Assembly (NCBI GenBank): GCA_018815925.1
Contig: JAHIWS010000006.1
Location: 14,286 to 78,285, forward strand
DNA from: Nanobdellota archaeon
GTDB taxonomy: Archaea; Nanobdellota; Nanobdellia; Pacearchaeales; GW2011-AR1
Reading direction: 5' to 3'
Length of the DNA stretch: 64,000 nucleotides
Shown here: positions 9,790-28,143 of the stretch, one piece after another
Layout of the letters: every line of letters starts with the position of its first letter
Position numbering within the stretch: position 1 is the stretch's first letter
The notes under the pieces: model-generated
What the model was told of the DNA's origin: nothing
Databases searched by the model: none
What the model saw: only the letters and a program-made list of their open reading frames with translations
Program-made: the position numbers and the translations under genes

Positions 9790-11730
9790 TTAACCATAAT
9801 TCTCAAAAGCATCTAAAACTCTAGAATCTGGTGATAGCACAAAGATATGATCATTTTTAGACCTTACCCCCCTGTATACTTTTTGCCATAATTCTCTTCT
9901 GGCTTTGTCTTTATAAAAAGCCCAATAATGTTGAGGATTTGCCCTGTTTAATATTTTCCAAAAAGCATCTTGAACATTAGGATTTGGGTATTTTGTAAAA
10001 ATAATACTATTACATTGACTTCCTGGAAAATCTATTCCTCTTGAAACTCTTGTAGAAAATAAAACATCATTATATCCTTTTTTAAATTCTTCAACCAATC
10101 TTCCTATTTTATCTTGTTCTTGATTAAACCTAAAATTATCTTTTGCTATTAAATTTTTTAAATCTAATAATTTTATTTCTTGTTGTGTTGGCAGATCTGC
10201 AAAAGAATTAACATGCACTAAACAAGGCTTTTTAGCAATTTCAACACATAAATCTAATGCCTTTAGATAATCTTTTCTAGTGTTTTTTCCATTAGAAAAA
10301 TTAGAGTATTTGCAGTCTATTTCTTTTCCTGTTCTTTTTACTTGTATTTTACCTTGGTTTTCAACTTCTGCTTCAAGAATTTTAAAATTCTCCAAACCAA
10401 ATATATCTTTTAAGACTTCTTCTGAATGGACTGTTCCTGACATCAATACAATGTTTTTACTTTTATTTATCATTTCTTTAAATTTTTTAGCTAGATTTGT
10501 TGTGACAAGACTAAAAAACAGATTATTTTCTATTTTATTAACTGTTACATAAGTTTCATCCATAAAATCCTTAAACATTAAGGCAGTTTCCTCTACATCA
10601 AAAACATAATTTTCATCATCTGCTTCTTCAAAAAGTTTAGGGCAATTTAAGATCATTCTTAATAAATCATAGATCCCTGTTTTTTTTAAGGGCAATATTT
10701 CTTTTGAAATAATAGCTTGTTTTATTTTTTTGTCCTTTTTTATGCTGGAGATTATTTTGAATATTTCTGCAATAGTATCATCTACTTCTTGATTTACACT
10801 TATCACCCTTGTTAAAGAATTTTGAAATCTATCAAGATTTATGTTTTTTTGATTGGAAAAACTATCTAAAAAATCATCACATTCATCAATAATTTCTACT
10901 TCTGTAAAAGGTTTTCTATTTAATAAACTTTCTAGTTTGTATTTTAAAGAATTAAACACAAGGATATCAGAAGTAATAAATGAATCAAATTGCTCATAAA
11001 AACCACATCCTTTTTTCCTTTCATAATAATTAAATTTTATTCCTGAAAGACCTTCATATTCTCTTTTTCTTGCTTTATCAAAGATTGGTCCTTTTAGTTC
11101 ATATTCTGAAGGTAAAACAGGAGACCAATAGGGGCATACACTTGCAACAGGAACTCTTTTTATGTGTTTTATATCTGTAAAGTTTCTTACATCAATGTAT
11201 TTATTTTGTTTAATATAATGCTTTAGTTTATTGTAGTTTTTTTCTTTTATTTCTATTTTGCAAGGAATTGAATTATTATTTGCAGAAATATCTTTTTCAA
11301 ATTTATTATCTAGCTCTTTAGATTTCCCATCAAAAATATCATTTAATTTTGCATCAACTTCTTTTTTTATTGTAGGTACTGATTCTTTATTGTTTTTTAA
11401 AAATTTGCAGACATGATTGGCTCTTCCTGTTATTATACTTATTTTTAGTTTTTCTTTGTTTTCTTTAAGAAGATATTTTTGCTTTTCATAATCTTTTTTA
11501 TACTGGCTCTGAAGATTTTTTCCTGGGACAACTATGGAGGCTTTTCCTAATTCTTTAGCAATATTTAATGCTATTGCTGATTTTCCAGTTCCACAGACTC
11601 CTTTGATAAATAAGATATTATTTCCCTTTTTTATTTCATTTAATACTTCTTTAACAATATCTTCTTGAGATTTTCCATTTGAAAAAACCAAAGGTTCTAG
11701 AAATTTGCCATTTTCATATAGGCTCCACAT
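9790..11730 (-). CDS. XPD/Rad3/DinG-family (superfamily 2) DNA helicase-like protein
   Basis: Walker A GVCGTGKSA, GRANHVC, four spaced Cys (HVCKF, IPCKIE, SVCPYW, KGCGFY) compatible with an Fe-S domain, motif II IIDECDDF, MSGT, C-terminal SRGIDFPG and YRGVRSKND. Confidence 0.65.
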   Translation of the reverse strand: MWSLYENGKFLEPLVFSNGKSQEDIVKEVLNEIKKGNNILFIKGVCGTGKSAIALNIAKELGKASIVVPGKNLQSQYKKDYEKQKYLLKENKEKLKISIITGRANHVCKFLKNNKESVPTIKKEVDAKLNDIFDGKSKELDNKFEKDISANNNSIPCKIEIKEKNYNKLKHYIKQNKYIDVRNFTDIKHIKRVPVASVCPYWSPVLPSEYELKGPIFDKARKREYEGLSGIKFNYYERKKGCGFYEQFDSFITSDILVFNSLKYKLESLLNRKPFTEVEIIDECDDFLDSFSNQKNINLDRFQNSLTRVISVNQEVDDTIAEIFKIISSIKKDKKIKQAIISKEILPLKKTGIYDLLRMILNCPKLFEEADDENYVFDVEETALMFKDFMDETYVTVNKIENNLFFSLVTTNLAKKFKEMINKSKNIVLMSGTVHSEEVLKDIFGLENFKILEAEVENQGKIQVKRTGKEIDCKYSNFSNGKNTRKDYLKALDLCVEIAKKPCLVHVNSFADLPTQQEIKLLDLKNLIAKDNFRFNQEQDKIGRLVEEFKKGYNDVLFSTRVSRGIDFPGSQCNSIIFTKYPNPNVQDAFWKILNRANPQHYWAFYKDKARRELWQKVYRGVRSKNDHIFVLSPDSRVLDAFENYG

Positions 11731-16780: not shown

Positions 16781-16828
16781 CTTTTCCAACACAATTATAT
16801 TTATAAAAAAATTATAATTCTATTGAAA

Positions 16829-18499
16829 ATGGTAAAATTAGTTAATCCAAAAGTAAAAATTCTTGATTATGGTCCTAAAATCATGAGTAAAAATGGAAAA
16901 GTAATTCTTACCCCTGATGAACTTGTTTATGGAGGAGCTATAGCAACTTATCAAGATGTTGATTCTATGCAAGAATTATTAAATAAAAAGAAAGAATATT
17001 TTCAATTAAAAAAAAGATTAGATAATACAACAGATTTTGCTAAAAAACAAAATCTTGAAGCAAAAATAGAAGATTTAGATTATAGTCCAAAAAAAATTAA
17101 AAATAAAATTTTAGGTATTTGTGCAAGAGGTCATGCTTCTATGGCTACAACTCCTGTTGTCTGGTTTGATATTATGAATTCTTCAAAATTAATTGACTCT
17201 ATTTTTACTGGAGCAAGATTTGGAAGTTTTTTAATGCCTTCAAGTAGAAGAGTTCCAATAACAAAAGAAAATATTGTTATACCAAGAGGAGTTAAGGAAA
17301 AAGGTAGGAGAGCTGAAAAAATATATGTTGAATCAGCTGAAAATAATGTTGAAACCTATGAAAAAGTTCAGAACAATAATGTTGAAACCCAAGATGCAAG
17401 CAAAATAGTTCATTATGGCCATGCTGGAGGCGGAAGATTACAAATGCCTTTAGACACAATTATTTATTTTAAAAATTTGATGGATAATGATTTTGATAAT
17501 GCTATTCCTAGAGAAGGCAAAGAAATCATATCACAATTAGATTCTTGGATTAGGGATGGTAGTGGAATGGAAAATATTTATGTGGGAAAATTAAGAGCTC
17601 CTAGAACAAGTTGTGTTAATCCGAATATTTTTACATTTAGAAGAAACAGAGCCGAAAAATTAAAAGAAAAACTTGGAATAGGAATAGAACCTATGATATT
17701 AAATAAAAATATTGAAAAAGATAATGAAACTATTTATAGGATGCAACAGTGGTTAGATTATAGAAAGGAAATTTTTTCTGATTCAGATAGACTCAAAAAT
17801 GAAGGAAAAAAATTATTAGACAAATTAGATGAGATTATTGTGGATAATAATGGATTGATTAATTTTGAAATGGGTGTTAAAATTCCTTGGAGAGTTTGGG
17901 GTGAAGTAAAAAGACACAGGACAATGCCTCAAACAACAGAATCAGTTTATAATGCAATGGACAAAACTTTAGAAGTTGTGCACAATTTTGAGTTACATAA
18001 GAGAAATGTAGATGTAGAAGTAATACTTGATGCTTATCTTCCAATAATTGATATCCCTATCCCTGTTCAAAGAAATGAAGATAATCTTGAGTTATGGATT
18101 AATGCTTGGGATAAATCTGCTTTAGCTTATCAAAAACTTGTTGAGATGGGTGTTGAAAAAAGTGATGCAATTATGATAGTTCCAAGAGCACTTTTACTTG
18201 CAAATATTAAAACCTATGATTTGTACAACGCTACAACAGGATATGGGTCTTTAAGAAAATGTAGCTCAGTAGAGAATAAAATGAAAGAAATAACAAGAAA
18301 AGAATTGGAATTAATAAAGGAAAGTGTTGATTATAAAATTGGTTGCTTATTAGAACCTAAATGTGAGTATATTGGTTATTGTCCTGAAATAAATACTTGC
18401 GGGAATATTACTCAAAAATTTCTTCCTTCATATACAAAAGAGTTTCATAAAAATTTTAATAAAAAAAGGATTAAAAAGATTAGAGAAGAGTTAAAGTAG
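16829..18499 (+). CDS. thyX: ThyX-like flavin-dependent thymidylate synthase, double-length form
   Basis: RGHASMATTPVVWFDIMNSSKLIDSIFTGARFGSFLMPSSRRV resembles the ThyX core with a degenerate signature. A second repeat, FEMGVKIPWRVWGEVKRHRTMPQTTES, carries RHR. Located between dut and thioredoxin. The ORF track starts at a TTG at 16823; ATG at 16829 is preferred. Confidence 0.55.
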   Translation: MVKLVNPKVKILDYGPKIMSKNGKVILTPDELVYGGAIATYQDVDSMQELLNKKKEYFQLKKRLDNTTDFAKKQNLEAKIEDLDYSPKKIKNKILGICARGHASMATTPVVWFDIMNSSKLIDSIFTGARFGSFLMPSSRRVPITKENIVIPRGVKEKGRRAEKIYVESAENNVETYEKVQNNNVETQDASKIVHYGHAGGGRLQMPLDTIIYFKNLMDNDFDNAIPREGKEIISQLDSWIRDGSGMENIYVGKLRAPRTSCVNPNIFTFRRNRAEKLKEKLGIGIEPMILNKNIEKDNETIYRMQQWLDYRKEIFSDSDRLKNEGKKLLDKLDEIIVDNNGLINFEMGVKIPWRVWGEVKRHRTMPQTTESVYNAMDKTLEVVHNFELHKRNVDVEVILDAYLPIIDIPIPVQRNEDNLELWINAWDKSALAYQKLVEMGVEKSDAIMIVPRALLLANIKTYDLYNATTGYGSLRKCSSVENKMKEITRKELELIKESVDYKIGCLLEPKCEYIGYCPEINTCGNITQKFLPSYTKEFHKNFNKKRIKKIREELK

Positions 18500-18993: not shown

Positions 18994-19113
18994 GGCTCCG
19001 TAGCTCAGCCTGGCAGAGCACTGGACTTTTAAGCTGAAACATGTTTCGCTTCCTTAGCGAATTTGATTCACAAAGGAATCCAGGTGTCGAGGGTTCAAAT
19101 CCCTTCGGGGCCA
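18994..19113 (+). tRNA. tRNA-Lys (anticodon UUU) with 46-nt intron (19032-19077)
   Basis: Acceptor GGCTCCG/CGGGGCC, D arm GCTC-AGCCTGGCA-GAGC, anticodon stem CTGGA/TCCAG with loop CTTTTA|intron|A, T arm GAGGG-TTCAAAT-CCCTT, discriminator A. The intron is at the canonical 37/38 position. Confidence 0.85.
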
Positions 19114-19450
19114 TACTTTTTTGAGTAAGTAATTTATCTTCCAAATTGCTTATTGAATTATAAAAAGAGGAAAAAAGAAATAAATTAATGCCTGATTATT
19201 TAGTAAATCTTAAAAAATTACTTCTTAGGAGACAATTTCCAGTATCTTATATGAGAATCTAGATTTAGTTCTCTTCCCCTTCCATCAGTAACTTTAACAT
19301 AGGATGCAAATACTGGTAAAGACCTATAACTGTTTCTTTCATTGGATCCTCTTTTTTACCATTATATTCTTTACCTGTTCAAATATATAAACTACTTGTC
19401 TAAATATTACTAGAATAATTCTTATAAATAGATACCTTTAATACACCAGA

Positions 19451-19525
19451 GAACCCACCGGCTTTGCACAATAAGTGGTTCTTGCACAAAAAGTCATCTA
19501 GTTATTGTGCAAAGCCGAACCCACC
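19451..19525. mobile_element. 57-bp MITE-like inverted-repeat element (19460-19516) with 9-bp flanking direct repeat GAACCCACC
   Basis: GGCTTTGCACAATAA ... TTATTGTGCAAAGCC (15-bp inverted termini). Exact 9-bp GAACCCACC on both sides. Same length as the 18511-18567 copy, with the same internal TGCACA at the same offset. Confidence 0.55.
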
Positions 19526-19539: not shown

Positions 19540-19619
19540 CCAAATTTTACTTTCTTTTATTATTGCAAAGTTATTAAAATTTTCACTTGGTTGATACTCT
19601 GCAAAACCCTATTACAAAA

Positions 19620-19829
19620 ATGCCACATATTCTGCAACCAAAACATGTCAAGCTTAATGAAAAAGATGCTGAGAAATTGCTACAAGGATTAAATATTTCT
19701 AAAGCCCAATTACCCAAAATTCTTTCTACAGACACTGTGCTTCCAGAAGGATGTCAGGTAGGGGATATAATTAAAATAGAAAGAAAAGATAGAGACAAGG
19801 TTTATATTTATTATAGGGTGGTAGTGTAA
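19620..19829 (+). CDS. rpoH: DNA-directed RNA polymerase subunit Rpo5 (RpoH)
   Basis: MPHILQPKHVKLNEKDAEKLLQGLNISKAQLPKI...GDIIKIERKD...YYRVVV matches the RpoH pattern (HxLVPKH ... QLPxI ... GDVVxIxR ... YRxV). The ORF track's TTG start at 19587 is unlikely. Confidence 0.85.
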   Translation: MPHILQPKHVKLNEKDAEKLLQGLNISKAQLPKILSTDTVLPEGCQVGDIIKIERKDRDKVYIYYRVVV

Positions 19830-23088: not shown

Positions 23089-23090
23089 AA

Positions 23091-23384
23091 ATGATTCCAG
23101 AACATAATTTTGAGAGAATGAAAAAATATAAAATTACTGTACCAACAGGATCAGGGAAAAAAGAGATAGTTAGAGCAAGATATAAGGGATTAATAGAGGG
23201 AACCCATGTATTTGAAAATGAAGCTAGTTATGTAGTAGCTGAAGATGATCAAATAGTTGTTGGAGGAGATATTATTAATCAAAAATTACACTTATCTTCT
23301 ATAGGTATCGGAAGAATTAATAAAAGTTTATTAGGCCTCACTAGAAAAATAAATAAATTAGAACAAACAAACAATAAAAAATGA
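23091..23384 (+). CDS. hypothetical protein (97 aa) between rpoB and rpoA
   Basis: Starts 2 nt after the rpoB stop. 4-nt overlap with the next ORF. No recognisable family. Confidence 0.45.
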   Translation: MIPEHNFERMKKYKITVPTGSGKKEIVRARYKGLIEGTHVFENEASYVVAEDDQIVVGGDIINQKLHLSSIGIGRINKSLLGLTRKINKLEQTNNKK

Positions 23385-23608
23385 ACCAAAAAAATAACCG
23401 TGAAAGAAAAATGATTAAATTGTTTAATTCTATAAAATTAGTAGATAGGTGGGACAATCTTTGTAGATATATTCAAAATCCATTAAATTCACAAGATGAT
23501 GAATGTGGAGATTGCAGTGCTTTAGAAATTGATGCTAAAAATAAATGCCCAATTTATAAAATGAACATACAAAAAGAATATAGATTAAATCAAAATTTAT
23601 CAGAATAA
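23381..23608 (+). CDS. hypothetical Cys-containing protein (65-75 aa) between rpoB and rpoA
   Basis: ATGA overlap with the previous ORF. Ends 7 nt before rpoA. Cys residues at NLCRY, ECGDCS and KCPIY. Confidence 0.4.
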   Translation: MNQKNNRERKMIKLFNSIKLVDRWDNLCRYIQNPLNSQDDECGDCSALEIDAKNKCPIYKMNIQKEYRLNQNLSE

Positions 23609-23615
23609 AACTAAA

Positions 23616-26600
23616 ATGCAAAAAATAATCAGAAAAAAAATAGGAGAAATTAGATTTAGTTTACTTAGTCCAGAAAAAATTAAAAAATTATCAGCAGCAA
23701 AAATTGTAACACCTGAACTTTATGATATAGATGGTTATCCTGTTGATGGGGGTTTAATGGATCTTAGGCTAGGGGCAATTGATCCTGGAGTAAGATGTAG
23801 GACTTGTGGTGGAAGACTTAAAGAATGTTTAGGGCATTCTGGAAGTATTGATCTTGCCAGACCAGTAATTCATTTAAAATACATACCTTTAATTGAACTT
23901 GGATTAAGGTGTTTTTGTCATTCATGTAAAAAATTAATGATAGCAGATAAAGATTTAGAAAAATATTCTGCAAGTCAAAGAGCTAAGAAATCAAAAGATG
24001 CTAAAAAATGTCCTCACTGTCAATCAGCTCAAGATAAAATTAAATTAGATAAACCAACAAATTTCCTTAGGGGAAAAACAAGATTATTTCCTACAGAAAT
24101 AAGAGAAATACTAAGTAATGTTCCTGATTCTGAATTAAGAAAAATAGCAATTGACCCAACAACTTCAAGACCAGAGTGGGCTATATTAACAACTCTTTTA
24201 GTACCTCCTGTAACAGTAAGACCAAGTATTATTCTTGAATCTGGTGAAAGAAGTGAAGATGATCTTACACATAAACTTTCTGATATTATCAGGGCAAATC
24301 AAAGACTTTGGGAAAACCTAAATGCAGGAGCTCCAGAAGTTATTATTGAGGATCTTTGGGATTTATTACAATTTCACATCACAACTTTTTTTGATAATAC
24401 AGTGGCTAGAATTCCCCCTGCAAGACATAGAAGCGGACAACCACTTAAAACAATAACAGAAAGAATCAAGGGTAAGGAAGGAAGAATAAGAAAAAATCTT
24501 GCTGGTAAAAGAGTTAATTTTTCTGGAAGAACAGTTATTTCACCTGATCCTTCAATAGAAATAAATGAAGTGGGTATTCCATATGAAATTGCTAAAGTTG
24601 TCACTGTTGCTGAAACAGTAAATGATTTAAATATTGAAAAATTAAAAAAATTGATTCAAAAAGCAGAAGTTTATCCTGGAGCAAATTATATTATTAGACC
24701 TGATGGCAAAAGAAAAAAAATAACTGCTGACTTAAAAGAAGAAATAGTTGCTGAAATATCACCTGGTTATAAGGTAGAAAGACATCTTCAAGATGGAGAT
24801 ATTGTATTGTTCAATAGACATCCAAGTCTGCACAGGGGTAGTCTCATGAGTCATTATGTAAAAGTTCTTCCAGGTAGAACATTTAGATTACATCCTGCTG
24901 TAGCTTTTCCCTATAATGCTGATTTTGATGGAGATGAAATGAATATTCATTCCCCTCAAACAGAAGAAGCAAGATCAGAAGCAAAAGTACTTCTTGATGT
25001 TAAACAAAATTTAATTTCACCAAAAAATAGCACCAATTTTATAGGGTGTGTGGATGATTCAATAACAGGAAATTATTTGATTGGAATGGACACTTTTTCA
25101 AAAGAAGATGCAAATCAAATTCTTTATAAATCAGGAATAAAATCCCAAATTTCAAAGAAGACCATTTCAGGATTAGAATTATTCTCAAAAGTTCTTCCTA
25201 AAATTAATTTTTCAAGTGATTCTATTAATATCAAAGAAGGAGAAATAATTAAAGGAGTACTTGATAAAACAGTTTTTGGTGATGAAGGAGGAGATTTAAT
25301 TAAGGAATTAGATAAAAGTGTTGGAAGATTAGAGGCTTTTGATACAATAAAAAGAGCATTTAACATGGGAAAAAATTATTTAACAGATAGAGGTATAACA
25401 ATATCAGTTGAAGATCTTGATTTAGACAAATCAGTTGTTGAAAAAGCAAAAGAAATCATTGAGAAAGCAGAACAAAGGACTAAAGAAGTGATTGTTTCCT
25501 ACGATGAGAGAACTCTTGAAATTATTCCTGGGAAGACAAAAGAAGAATCAAGAGAATTAAAAATACTTAAAATTTTAAACGAAGTAAGAACAAAAATAGG
25601 GGAGATTGTTAAAAAAGAGTTTTCTGCAGAGAATCCTGTTTCACATATGATTAAGTCTGGGGGGGGAGGGAATATTTTGAATATAACTCAGATGGCTTGC
25701 TGTGTTGGACAGCAAGATTTAGAAGGTAAAAGAATTGATTTAGGCTATAATGATAGAACACTTTCATTTTTTAAGAAAGGAGATTTATCACCAAAATCAA
25801 GAGGGTTCATAAATAGTCCTTTTATAAAAGGATTAAGACCAGATGAATTCTTTTTTGGAGCTATTACTGGTAGGGCTACACTTATGGATACTGGATTAAG
25901 AACTCCAAAATCAGGATATTTATATAGAAGATTAGCAAATGCATTACAAGATCTTAAAAAAGAGTATGATGGAACAGTAAGAGATAGCAACAACAATATA
26001 ATCCAATTTGAATATGGAGAAGATGGTTTAGATGTTTCACAACTTCACCTGAAAAAGGAGCTTGATCCTGGAGAAGCTATTGGAATCATTACTGCCCAAT
26101 CATTTGGAGAGCCTTCAACACAAATGGTTTTGAGAACTTTTCATTTTGCAGGTGTTTCTGAAATGCAAGTTACCCAAGGTCTTCCAAGACTTATAGAAAT
26201 TTTTGATGCTAGAAAAAAACCTTCATCCCCAAAAATGGAAATTTATTTGAATAAAGATAATAATAATGAAAATTCAGCAAGAGTATTTGCTGAAAAAATA
26301 AAAGAGGTTTCAATAAGAGAAATCTCTTCAGAAATTAATTTGAATTTTAGTGATAAAAAAATAGAAATCAAAATTGACAAAGAAGGGTTAAAACAAATTC
26401 ATACTTCAGTAGCAAAAGTTGTGGAAAGACTTAAAGATTTAAAATTTAAGGCTAAAGAGACTGGAGATTCAATAATTCTAAGTGCTAGTGATTTAAATTT
26501 CAAAGAAATTTATAAACTTAAAGAAAAATTAAAGAACACAGTAATATCAGGAGTTAAAGGAGTAAAACAAGTTTTAGTTGTAAAAAGGGGAAAGGATTTT

Positions 26601-27104: not shown

Positions 27105-27115
27105 TTTTTCCTGTG

Positions 27116-27129
27116 GAAACCTTTATAAA
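27116..27129 (+). promoter_or_regulatory. BRE/TATA element upstream of nusA
   Basis: GAAACCTTTATAAA. The TATA ends 26 nt before the ATG at 27156. Confidence 0.5.
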
Positions 27130-27155
27130 CAAACTTCTTTTTCAAAAATCATAAG

Positions 27156-27572
27156 ATGGTAAATGTAATAGATATGAGGGATCTTAGATATCTTAATTTA
27201 TTTGGAAACATTACTAAAATAGATACAAAATTTTGTTTCAGATATAATGAAGTATTAATATTTTGTATCCCAAAACAACTTATTAGAAGAGCTGTTGGAG
27301 AAAATGGAAGAAATGTAAAAAAACTTAGTGAAATTTTAAGGAAAAAAATAAAAATAATTCCCATACCCCAAAACCCAGAACACATAAGGCCATTTATTGA
27401 ATCTGTTGTTAGTCCTGTAAAATTTAAAGATTTGGAAGTTAAAGATAATGAAGTAATTTTAACTGCAGGAAGTAATAGTAAAGCAGCACTTATTGGAAGA
27501 AATAAGCGTAGATTTTTTGAAATGCAGGAAATTATAAAAGATTTTTTTAAAAAAGATTTTAAGATTATTTAA
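27156..27572 (+). CDS. nusA: archaeal NusA-like transcription termination factor (two KH domains)
   Basis: 138 aa. RRAVGENGRNVKKLSEIL and AALIGRNKRRFFEMQEI are the GxxG-type KH motifs. Conserved position after rpoA. Confidence 0.8.
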   Translation: MVNVIDMRDLRYLNLFGNITKIDTKFCFRYNEVLIFCIPKQLIRRAVGENGRNVKKLSEILRKKIKIIPIPQNPEHIRPFIESVVSPVKFKDLEVKDNEVILTAGSNSKAALIGRNKRRFFEMQEIIKDFFKKDFKII

Positions 27573-27579
27573 AACTAAA

Positions 27580-28143
27580 ATGGATTTAGAAAAACAAACT
27601 AAAAAAATAATCCTAAATTCAGTTAGATCAAAAGATATTGAAGGAGCCATGGATTATTTAGTTAAGACTTACAAACACAAGGCAGGATGTTTAGCTTATA
27701 GGTTTGTAGGTAATTATGAAACTGCTAGAGAGGTTATTCAAGAATCTTTTATAGAGCTTTTTAAAAATCTTCATAAGTTTAATCCCACCCATAATTTTTA
27801 TACGTGGTTCTATACAATAATAAAAAATAAATCAATTAATTATCTTAGATATAAAAATAGACAAATTTATCAAACTAGACTAGATTACAATTCTTTTAAA
27901 ATACCAGATCCTAACTTAAATCCAGAGGAACTTTTTGTTGAAAAACAAAAACAAGAATTATTAAAAAAAACAATAGATACTCTTCCTGAAAAATATAAAA
28001 CAATATTAATCTCCTCTTTAGAAAATTCTAGTTTAAGAAAAGTATCAGAAACACTTAGCATTCCCAGAGCGACAGTAACGTGGAGGTTTAATAAAGCAAA
28101 AGAAAAATTAAAACCTCTTTTAGCAAATCTTGTTTATTCGTAA
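27580..28143 (+). CDS. ECF-type sigma-70 family protein (regions 2 and 4)
   Basis: Region 2: AYRFVGNYETAREVIQESFIELFKNLHKFNPTHNFYTWFYTIIKNKSINYLRYKNR. Region 4: IDTLPEKYKTILISSLENSSLRKVSETLSIPRATVTWRFNKAKEKLKPLL. Size (187 aa) and motif spacing are typical of ECF sigma factors. Starts 7 nt after the nusA stop. Confidence 0.8.
   Translation: MDLEKQTKKIILNSVRSKDIEGAMDYLVKTYKHKAGCLAYRFVGNYETAREVIQESFIELFKNLHKFNPTHNFYTWFYTIIKNKSINYLRYKNRQIYQTRLDYNSFKIPDPNLNPEELFVEKQKQELLKKTIDTLPEKYKTILISSLENSSLRKVSETLSIPRATVTWRFNKAKEKLKPLLANLVYS

Follow-up and report, generated by a model that had tools for sequence, protein, structure and literature searches.

Few gene boundaries in archaea are considered as fixed as that between rpoB and rpoA, which encode the two largest subunits of RNA polymerase. 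In the window analysed here (the whole stretch of 64,000 nt, from a Nanobdellota archaeon), two small ORFs, ORF97 and ORF75, lie between these genes. An earlier sequence-only reading of the DNA had offered lineage-specific small polymerase subunits, assembly factors or a selfish insertion as candidate roles for them. The locus thus raises the question of whether these ORFs are genuine genes and, if so, whether they are parts of the polymerase or passengers of its operon.

Organization of the polymerase operon

The features of the region are listed in Table 1. The coordinates agree with the layout described in the sequence-only reading (ORF97 2 nt after rpoB, an ATGA overlap, a Cys-containing ORF75 and 7 nt before rpoA), except that the spacer, given there as 528 nt, is 527 nt long. 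The rpoH stop codon lies 1 nt ahead of the rpoB ATG. RpoB terminates in ...KNKYE, followed by TAA, and the 3' end of its gene, AAATACGAATAA, is kept in relatives. If the internal Met11 is taken as the start of ORF75, the predicted product is 65 aa in length. ORF97 and ORF75 carry the NCBI locus tags KKF48_01775 and KKF48_01770, respectively.

Table 1. Features of the polymerase operon in the window
Feature	Position	Strand	Basis or remark
rpoH (Rpo5)	19587..19829	+	Pfam RNA_pol_Rpb5_C, E 9e-18; first gene of the operon
rpoB (Rpo2), unsplit, 1085 aa	19831..23088	+	Pfam Rpb2 domains 1-7 complete
rpoB–rpoA slot, 527 nt, two cassettes	23089..23615	+	left border rpoB, right border rpoA
ORF97, cassette 1, 97 aa, no Cys	23091..23384	+	ATG 2 nt past the rpoB TAA
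ORF75, cassette 2, 75 aa, four Cys	23381..23608	+	ATGA overlap with ORF97
ATGA stop/start overlap (-4), ORF97/ORF75	23381..23384	+	coordinates of both ORFs
Right junction, 7-nt spacer ending in TAAAATG	23609..23618	+	ORF75 stop to rpoA
rpoA (Rpo1), fused A'+A'', 1162 aa	23616..27104	+	Pfam Rpb1 domains 1-5
nusA (NusA-type KH protein)	27156..27572	+	downstream of rpoA
ECF sigma-70 family gene	27580..28143	+	TIGR02937, 95.8 bits; Pfam Sigma70_r2, E 1e-15

In the fused rpoA, NCBIfam places A' at residues 3-817 and A'' at residues 807-1131. A fused rpoA of similar length (1143-1166 aa) is present in the 60 relatives with sufficient flanking sequence, and the A'+A'' fusion is therefore a trait of the lineage. 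The spacer between rpoA and nusA is 51 nt in the window (27105-27155); in relatives this spacing ranges from 1 to 985 nt and exceeds 150 nt in 24 of 72. In other archaea, rpl30e is found at the position between rpoA and nusA, and the long spacers may hold this gene or further cassettes.

Coding signal, homologues and selection

In the spacer (23089-23615, GC content 26 %), 98 % of the sequence lies in stop-free plus-strand frames that are 120 nt or longer. Shuffled versions average 14 %, and none of the 200 shuffles reached 98 %. The GC contents at the first, second and third codon positions (0.40/0.30/0.13 in ORF97 and 0.32/0.25/0.16 in ORF75) follow the pattern of rpoA and of rpoB, in which they are 0.44/0.33/0.13.

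Word-indexed searches of 5.8 billion clusters with ORF97 and ORF75 returned only the ORFs themselves. A tblastn comparison with 160 related loci (described below) revealed no homologue of either, and no paralogues were found in the window or in these loci. With the two proteins concatenated as the query, exhaustive scanning of 1.84 billion representatives by HMMER gave a single homologue per ORF, each on short contigs: P0010 (142 aa) for ORF97 (42 % identity, E 3e-11) and P0011 (74 aa) for ORF75 (44 % identity, E 5e-4). Identity of these homologues to the window ORFs is 38-45 %, varying with the alignment. Both are situated at the same site as in the window. The gene order in L161 is rpoB–P0010–rpoA, with P0010 alone at the junction, and that in L162-L164 is rpoB–P0011–rpoA, with P0011 likewise alone. 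P0011 retains all four Cys residues of ORF75 at 38 % overall identity, and the blocks LC.Y, NSQDDxCGDC and CPxY are common to the two proteins. As P0010 and P0011 each occur alone, ORF97 and ORF75 are independent cassettes and neither a pair nor a unit.

Nei-Gojobori estimates of dN/dS are 0.45 for ORF97 versus P0010 (bootstrap 95 % CI 0.24-0.77) and 0.41 for ORF75 versus P0011 (bootstrap 95 % CI 0.17-0.87); these values are rough because dS is ~1-1.5, near saturation, and they are probably upper estimates. For both ORFs, more than 99 % of bootstrap replicates yield a value below 1. In the adjoining segments of rpoB and rpoA, the ratio is 0.07-0.15. The dN values for ORF97 (0.48) and ORF75 (0.60) are four to five times higher than that of the flanks (0.12). 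L162, L163 and L164 are identical over the P0011 gene and hence uninformative on selection within the population. The sequence-only reading had named the lack of any conserved relative, with a dN/dS near 1, as grounds for abandoning the ORFs; what was found instead is homologues at the same site and the dN/dS values given above. Together, the open frames, the codon-position GC, the same-site homologues and the dN/dS values indicate that ORF97 and ORF75 are real genes that are inherited separately and are under selection that is purifying but relaxed.

The rpoB–rpoA junction in related loci

The 160 related loci were retrieved from GTDB genomes and JGI metagenomes with the N terminus of RpoA and the C terminus of RpoB. 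These loci, which carry the names Pacearchaeota, Woesearchaeota or Nanoarchaeota, are 78-88 % identical in the query segments. In 89 of the 151 loci with a measurable rpoB–rpoA junction (~60 %), the gap is 130-1015 nt; it is 41-129 nt in 13 loci and 40 nt or less in 49, a length of 1 nt (TAAAATG) being commonest. The expectation, also voiced in the sequence-only reading, that rpoB is directly followed by rpoA is thus borne out in approximately a third of relatives (49/151), but fails in the 89 with inserts of at least 130 nt.

The term slot is used here for an insertion of at least 130 nt that contains one or more ORFs on the same strand, with stop/start junctions of -4 to ~8 nt. The window, with junctions of 2 nt, -4 and 7 nt, has this arrangement, and the same layout is seen in the 89 loci. 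The window and these loci together have 90 long gaps, 87 of which are open in a plus-strand frame over 80 % or more of their length; mean open plus-strand cover is 97 %, compared with 18 % for shuffles. The cargo is typically ~50-130 aa in length, and the 107 gap ORFs form at least 16 small families and 54 singletons.

The two largest gap families are F1, with 11 members and the motif RTIELSDKVD, and F2, a Cys-rich family with 13 members after profile iteration and the motif ICEYA..C..F..YC..N....C.xY. Both retain invariant motifs at ~20 % identity, and in ~1 Mb of locus sequence their profiles match almost only within the slot. Four or more Cys residues are present in 34 of the 102 unique gap ORFs, whereas the background Cys frequency of 1.0 % predicts such a content in ~0.9 %. 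The families combine freely: gap contents include F10+F1, F1 with a Cys ORF, F7+F4, F4 alone and F1+F1+F12. F1 is present in the L131, L133 and L073 gaps, as tandem duplicates in the first two, and L017 has one copy beyond the slot, past rpoA and nusA (10781-11113). The L102 gap encodes a 323-aa protein with HD and OB-fold domains (Pfam HD, E 1e-15), while that of L157 encodes a 239-aa multi-pass membrane protein with an N-terminal CxxC...CxxC motif; small hydrophobic proteins are encoded in the L136 and L020 gaps.

The slot is specific to rpoB–rpoA as opposed to rpoH–rpoB, where the junction reaches 130 nt in only 6 of 113 loci. The usual length at rpoH–rpoB is -8 to +12 nt; the junction is longer than 100 nt in nine loci (L011, L054, L004, L002, L013, L018, L073, L127 and L131), all nine of which have an occupied rpoB–rpoA slot. 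Small ORFs are present at the rpoH–rpoB junction of L011 and L054, and ORFs at this junction have no homology to the rpoB–rpoA gap families.

Predicted products of the cassettes

Neither ORF97 nor ORF75 matches any Pfam family at E values up to 1 or any NCBIfam family at E values up to 10, in keeping with the earlier remark that they do not resemble Rpo8, Rpo10, Rpo12 or Rpo13. The Pfam models covered include RNA_pol_Rpb8, RNA_pol_N, DNA_RNApol_7kD and RNA_pol_Rpo13 for these four subunits. Comparison of each protein singly, and of the two-sequence profiles, with Pfam, NCBIfam, PHROGs, PADLOC and PDB sequences yielded nothing meaningful; a GajB line for ORF97 in PADLOC was sub-threshold (E 0.025, 11 bits) and was taken as noise. 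Viral contigs scanned with the two-sequence profiles of ORF97 and ORF75 contained no relatives. When the F2 profile and representatives of the other gap families were run against the same databases, only the HD and OB-fold protein of L102 was matched.

As judged from sequence, the product of ORF75, in which the Cys residues are spaced C28-x13-C42-x2-C45-x10-C56, most likely binds metal as a small four-Cys protein. A zinc-binding anti-sigma (ZAS) domain was considered and rejected: there is no Pfam match and the H-x3-C-x2-C motif is absent, both ORF75 and P0011 having Q, not H, four residues ahead of CGDC. ORF75 resembles the F2 proteins, which have four or five Cys residues, in position and approximate size. 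In a MAFFT alignment, C28, C42 and C56 of ORF75 align to three of the four Cys columns of F2 and the third Cys of F2 is missing; a CPIY motif is common to ORF75 and L094. An F2 HMM built without ORF75 gives ORF75 8.8 bits (E 0.011), a score reached by 9 of 2000 shuffles (p ~0.005). This support did not extend to the true homologue P0011, which scores only 3.2 bits, or to hhalign, which gives a probability of 1 %, and membership of F2 is doubtful. ORF75 and P0011 are best treated as a putative four-Cys family of their own that shares a theme with F2.

The ORF97 family, as delimited by sequence comparison, is defined by ORF97 and P0010 alone. No relatives of these two are detectable among the other gap ORFs, and a kinship of ORF97 with L074, L057 and L060, suggested by weak, short similarities, is not credible. 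AlphaFold2 models of both proteins are of low confidence and are unusable. For ORF97 (single sequence, pLDDT 48.5) the model has four beta-strands and a basic C-terminal helix, and for ORF75 (8-sequence alignment, pLDDT 47.6) it has helices flanking the Cys region. ORF97 is probably a small beta-rich protein with a basic C-terminal helix.

Turnover among close relatives

The nearest sampled relative of the window, L003, has an empty junction of 12 nt at 15 % amino-acid divergence over 400 flanking residues. Among 23 pairs of loci whose flanks differ by 2-6 % (94-98 % identical), a homologous cassette is common to both members in one pair only; four pairs have unrelated cassettes, ten have one empty site and eight are empty in both. 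F1 and F2 recur in genomes at ~20 % flank divergence. The phylogeny of the flanks is nearly star-like and is compatible with horizontal replacement or with repeated loss from an ancestral array. These patterns suggest frequent gain, loss and replacement of cassettes, for which recombination between the very conserved flanks is probably the simplest route.

The turnover bears on the proposal that ORF97 and ORF75 are lineage-specific RNA polymerase subunits, assembly factors or regulators that bind Rpo1/Rpo2, their position securing matched production. Such a role would fit the location between the genes of the two largest subunits and the coupled-translation geometry, as coupled gene pairs often encode subunits of the same complex (PMC10666635). 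It would also fit the confinement of the slot to rpoB–rpoA rather than rpoH–rpoB, the presence in the same operon of a transcription-related accessory gene (the ECF sigma-70 gene after nusA) and the four-Cys mini-proteins, which are reminiscent of the zinc-binding Rpo10 and Rpo12. However, the ORFs are absent from L003, 49 of the 151 loci have 40 nt or less at the junction, and very close relatives with 94-98 % identical flanks have unrelated ORFs or none. In addition, no profile matches any RNA polymerase subunit family, and the slot cargo includes membrane proteins and an HD/OB-fold protein. The proposal, in the form given in the sequence-only reading, is not upheld, and this wider version of it is unlikely. 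Because they are optional, differ among close relatives and occupy a slot whose cargo is partly unrelated to the polymerase, ORF97 and ORF75 are, as judged from these comparisons, not fixed polymerase subunits. A variable, optional polymerase modulator is possible; a fixed subunit is not.

Junction geometry and probable translational coupling

The ATG of the first cassette lies 1-2 nt after the rpoB stop in 63 of the 89 loci, and in 69 of the 89 the distance between the stop of the last cassette and the start codon of rpoA is -4 or 1-2 nt. TAAAATG is the consensus of the empty sites and of both cassette borders. Termination-reinitiation in archaea requires overlaps or very short spacers, and a -4 overlap is the classic arrangement for it (PMC6728339, PMC10666635). 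The window ORFs, which are co-directional and have a -4 overlap and short spacers, correspond to the coupled pairs described in these studies. The spacer of the window (23089-23615) contains no promoter-like site, terminator-like site or Rfam match. A T5 run is also absent, which is not significant because 44 % of shuffles contain one. The junction geometry and the lack of a promoter or terminator of their own make it likely that the genes are co-transcribed and that translation passes in relay from rpoB to the cassettes and on to rpoA. The earlier suggestion that the tight packing fits co-transcription and coupled translation gains from the recurrence of the same junction geometry in 89 related loci.

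Coupling of this kind could itself favour open frames. In the extreme case, the inserts would be translated spacers, kept open only for the passage of ribosomes from rpoB to rpoA, for coupling and for avoidance of polarity, and the peptides would be functionless. This would agree with the almost exact filling of the gaps by ORFs whatever their sequence, with the high proportion of singletons (54 of 107 gap ORFs), with nonsynonymous divergence four to five times that of the flanks, and with content that varies while the junction geometry stays. It is nevertheless very unlikely. dN/dS is significantly below 1 for both ORF97 and ORF75; the four Cys residues and the NSQDDxCGDC block of ORF75 have been kept, as have the invariant motifs of F1 and F2 at ~20 % identity; and the strong Cys enrichment is unexpected for functionless peptides. 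Moreover, the empty 1-nt junction is the simplest arrangement for coupling, and spacers would need a reason to persist. Selection for openness, through coupling, could explain part of the filling of the gaps by ORFs without any function of the products.

A selfish or mobile element, whether a toxin-antitoxin pair, a homing-endonuclease-type insertion or an integron-like cassette, would be another way of accounting for the insert. An ATGA-overlapped pair of ~100 aa and 75 aa resembles a toxin-antitoxin module, and the behaviour of the cassettes (promoterless, in one orientation and quickly turned over) resembles that of a cassette array. However, the homologues occur singly in other genomes, so that there is no obligate pair, and no relatives are found in viral contigs. 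There is no match in Pfam, NCBIfam or PHROGs, with only the sub-threshold GajB line in PADLOC. No direct or inverted repeats bracket 23089-23615, and the sole common border is the 7-nt TAAAATG, which is accounted for by coupling alone. A toxin-antitoxin module was rejected on the single occurrence of the homologues and the absence of a toxin or antitoxin domain, and an integron-type or transposable cassette on the absence of bracketing repeats at the locus, where TAAAATG is the only border motif. In the mobile-element sense, the selfish insertion proposed in the sequence-only reading is highly improbable: the searches revealed neither repeats at the flanks nor a nuclease, recombinase, integrase or toxin-antitoxin signature.

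Proposed expression and role of the cassettes

We consider, with fair confidence, that ORF97 and ORF75 are independent accessory cassettes, promoterless and translationally coupled, in an rpoB–rpoA slot specific to Pacearchaeota/Woesearchaeota-type DPANN archaea. The cassettes would be read within a transcript comprising rpoH, rpoB, the cassettes, rpoA and nusA, because no promoter or terminator of their own is detectable. Ribosomes ending rpoB would restart at ORF97 (2 nt away), then at ORF75 (through the ATGA overlap) and then at rpoA (7 nt away). To judge from the junction geometry and published termination-reinitiation, the cassettes could in this way be expressed with the coupling of rpoB to rpoA intact. 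Their products would be accessory and dispensable, with fast turnover between species by gain, loss and replacement.

That the cassette products act on the polymerase or on transcription is a tentative suggestion, and somewhat doubtful; it is kept alive by their position, the Cys-rich bias and the specificity of the slot. It is rather unlikely, although conceivable, that the slot is a dedicated site for interchangeable, fast-evolving RNA polymerase-binding mini-proteins, many of them metal-binding. Such mini-proteins may be accessory subunits of an optional kind, serving perhaps as guards or decoys against viral inhibitors of the polymerase or as host-specific transcription modulators in these symbiotic archaea. 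If so, the slot would represent a variable accessory-subunit system for archaeal RNA polymerase, without known counterpart, of which ORF97 and ORF75 would be two modules.

Other features of the window

The ECF sigma-70 gene, which is full-length, lies within the polymerase operon, 7 nt past nusA. None of the 160 related loci, 60 of which have enough downstream sequence to show the post-nusA position, contains it (tblastn, E 1e-5). Sigma-70 genes in DPANN have already been reported (PMC8204110); the position beside archaeal polymerase genes is notable. An identical 13-mer, TAAAACTAAAATG, is found at the ORF75–rpoA (23606-23618) and nusA–sigma (27570-27582) junctions. It was rejected as a signal, since in this AT-rich window the repeat is not significant (14 of 100 shuffles give at least three near-matches).

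Upstream of the operon, a tRNA match of 120 nt at 18994-19113 on the plus strand (Rfam RF00005, 55 bits) is not called by ARAGORN; the tRNA presumably contains an intron. The non-coding leader of the operon is ~470 nt long. Upstream of rpoH, at ~19450-19520 (+), there is a 13-nt inverted repeat, ctttgcacaataa / ttattgtgcaaag, flanked by direct gaacccacc repeats, which could be a regulatory hairpin or the remnant of a small mobile element. In a 558-aa protein encoded at 16823-18499 (+), the ThyX (Thy1) domain is confined to the C-terminal part (residues 346-500). The usual ThyX proteins are much shorter than this.

Comparison with known systems

In a large DPANN lineage without cultivated members, the content of the rpoB–rpoA junction changes readily: this slot holds dozens of unrelated small-protein families, a third of them Cys-rich, which would be tied to the translation of the two catalytic polymerase subunits. 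In annotation, ORFs labelled 'hypothetical' at this site should be taken as real genes, yet not as conserved subunits. The slot is also a defined and readily sampled locus at which to ask how essential operons take up new small genes and stay intact, whether the polymerases of archaea have partners that are optional and evolve fast, and what role small Cys-rich proteins have in reduced symbiotic archaea.

The slot resembles integron cassette arrays in that one to three short, promoterless ORFs lie in the same orientation behind an upstream promoter, with unrelated cargo that is mostly of unknown function and changes fast. In contrast to integrons, no attC-like repeats, integrase or attI are seen at the locus, the host is an archaeon, the borders consist of just TAAAATG, and the site is inside an essential, coupled operon.

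As proteins, ORF97 and ORF75 may be compared with Rpo13 and Rpo8 of the Crenarchaeota/Korarchaeota, which are also small and taxonomically restricted; for the two ORFs, too, a link to RNA polymerase is conceivable. Within their own lineages, Rpo13 and Rpo8 are conserved, and their genes lie elsewhere in the genome. ORF97 and ORF75, in contrast, have no Pfam match and are not kept even among close relatives. ORF145/RIP of ATV (PMC5123050) and phage gp39 (PMC3351154), polymerase-binding modulators of viral origin, are likewise small, fast-evolving and devoid of conserved domains, and the window ORFs, like them, could target the polymerase. There is no homology to either, however, nor any relative in viral contigs or PHROGs, and ORF97 and ORF75 are encoded by the cell within its own rpo operon, their binding to the polymerase being hypothetical.

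Hotspots flanked by core genes, such as the core defence hotspots (PMC10250203), share with the slot a fixed position and variable cargo, which fits recombination through the flanks. The slot differs in its tiny, single-ORF cargo and in interrupting an operon rather than lying between operons; no known defence model was matched, apart from one sub-threshold PADLOC line. No description of an rpoB–rpoA slot was found in the literature searched. Core-gene hotspots and promoterless cassette arrays are known; what is new is a variable array of small genes between archaeal rpoB and rpoA.
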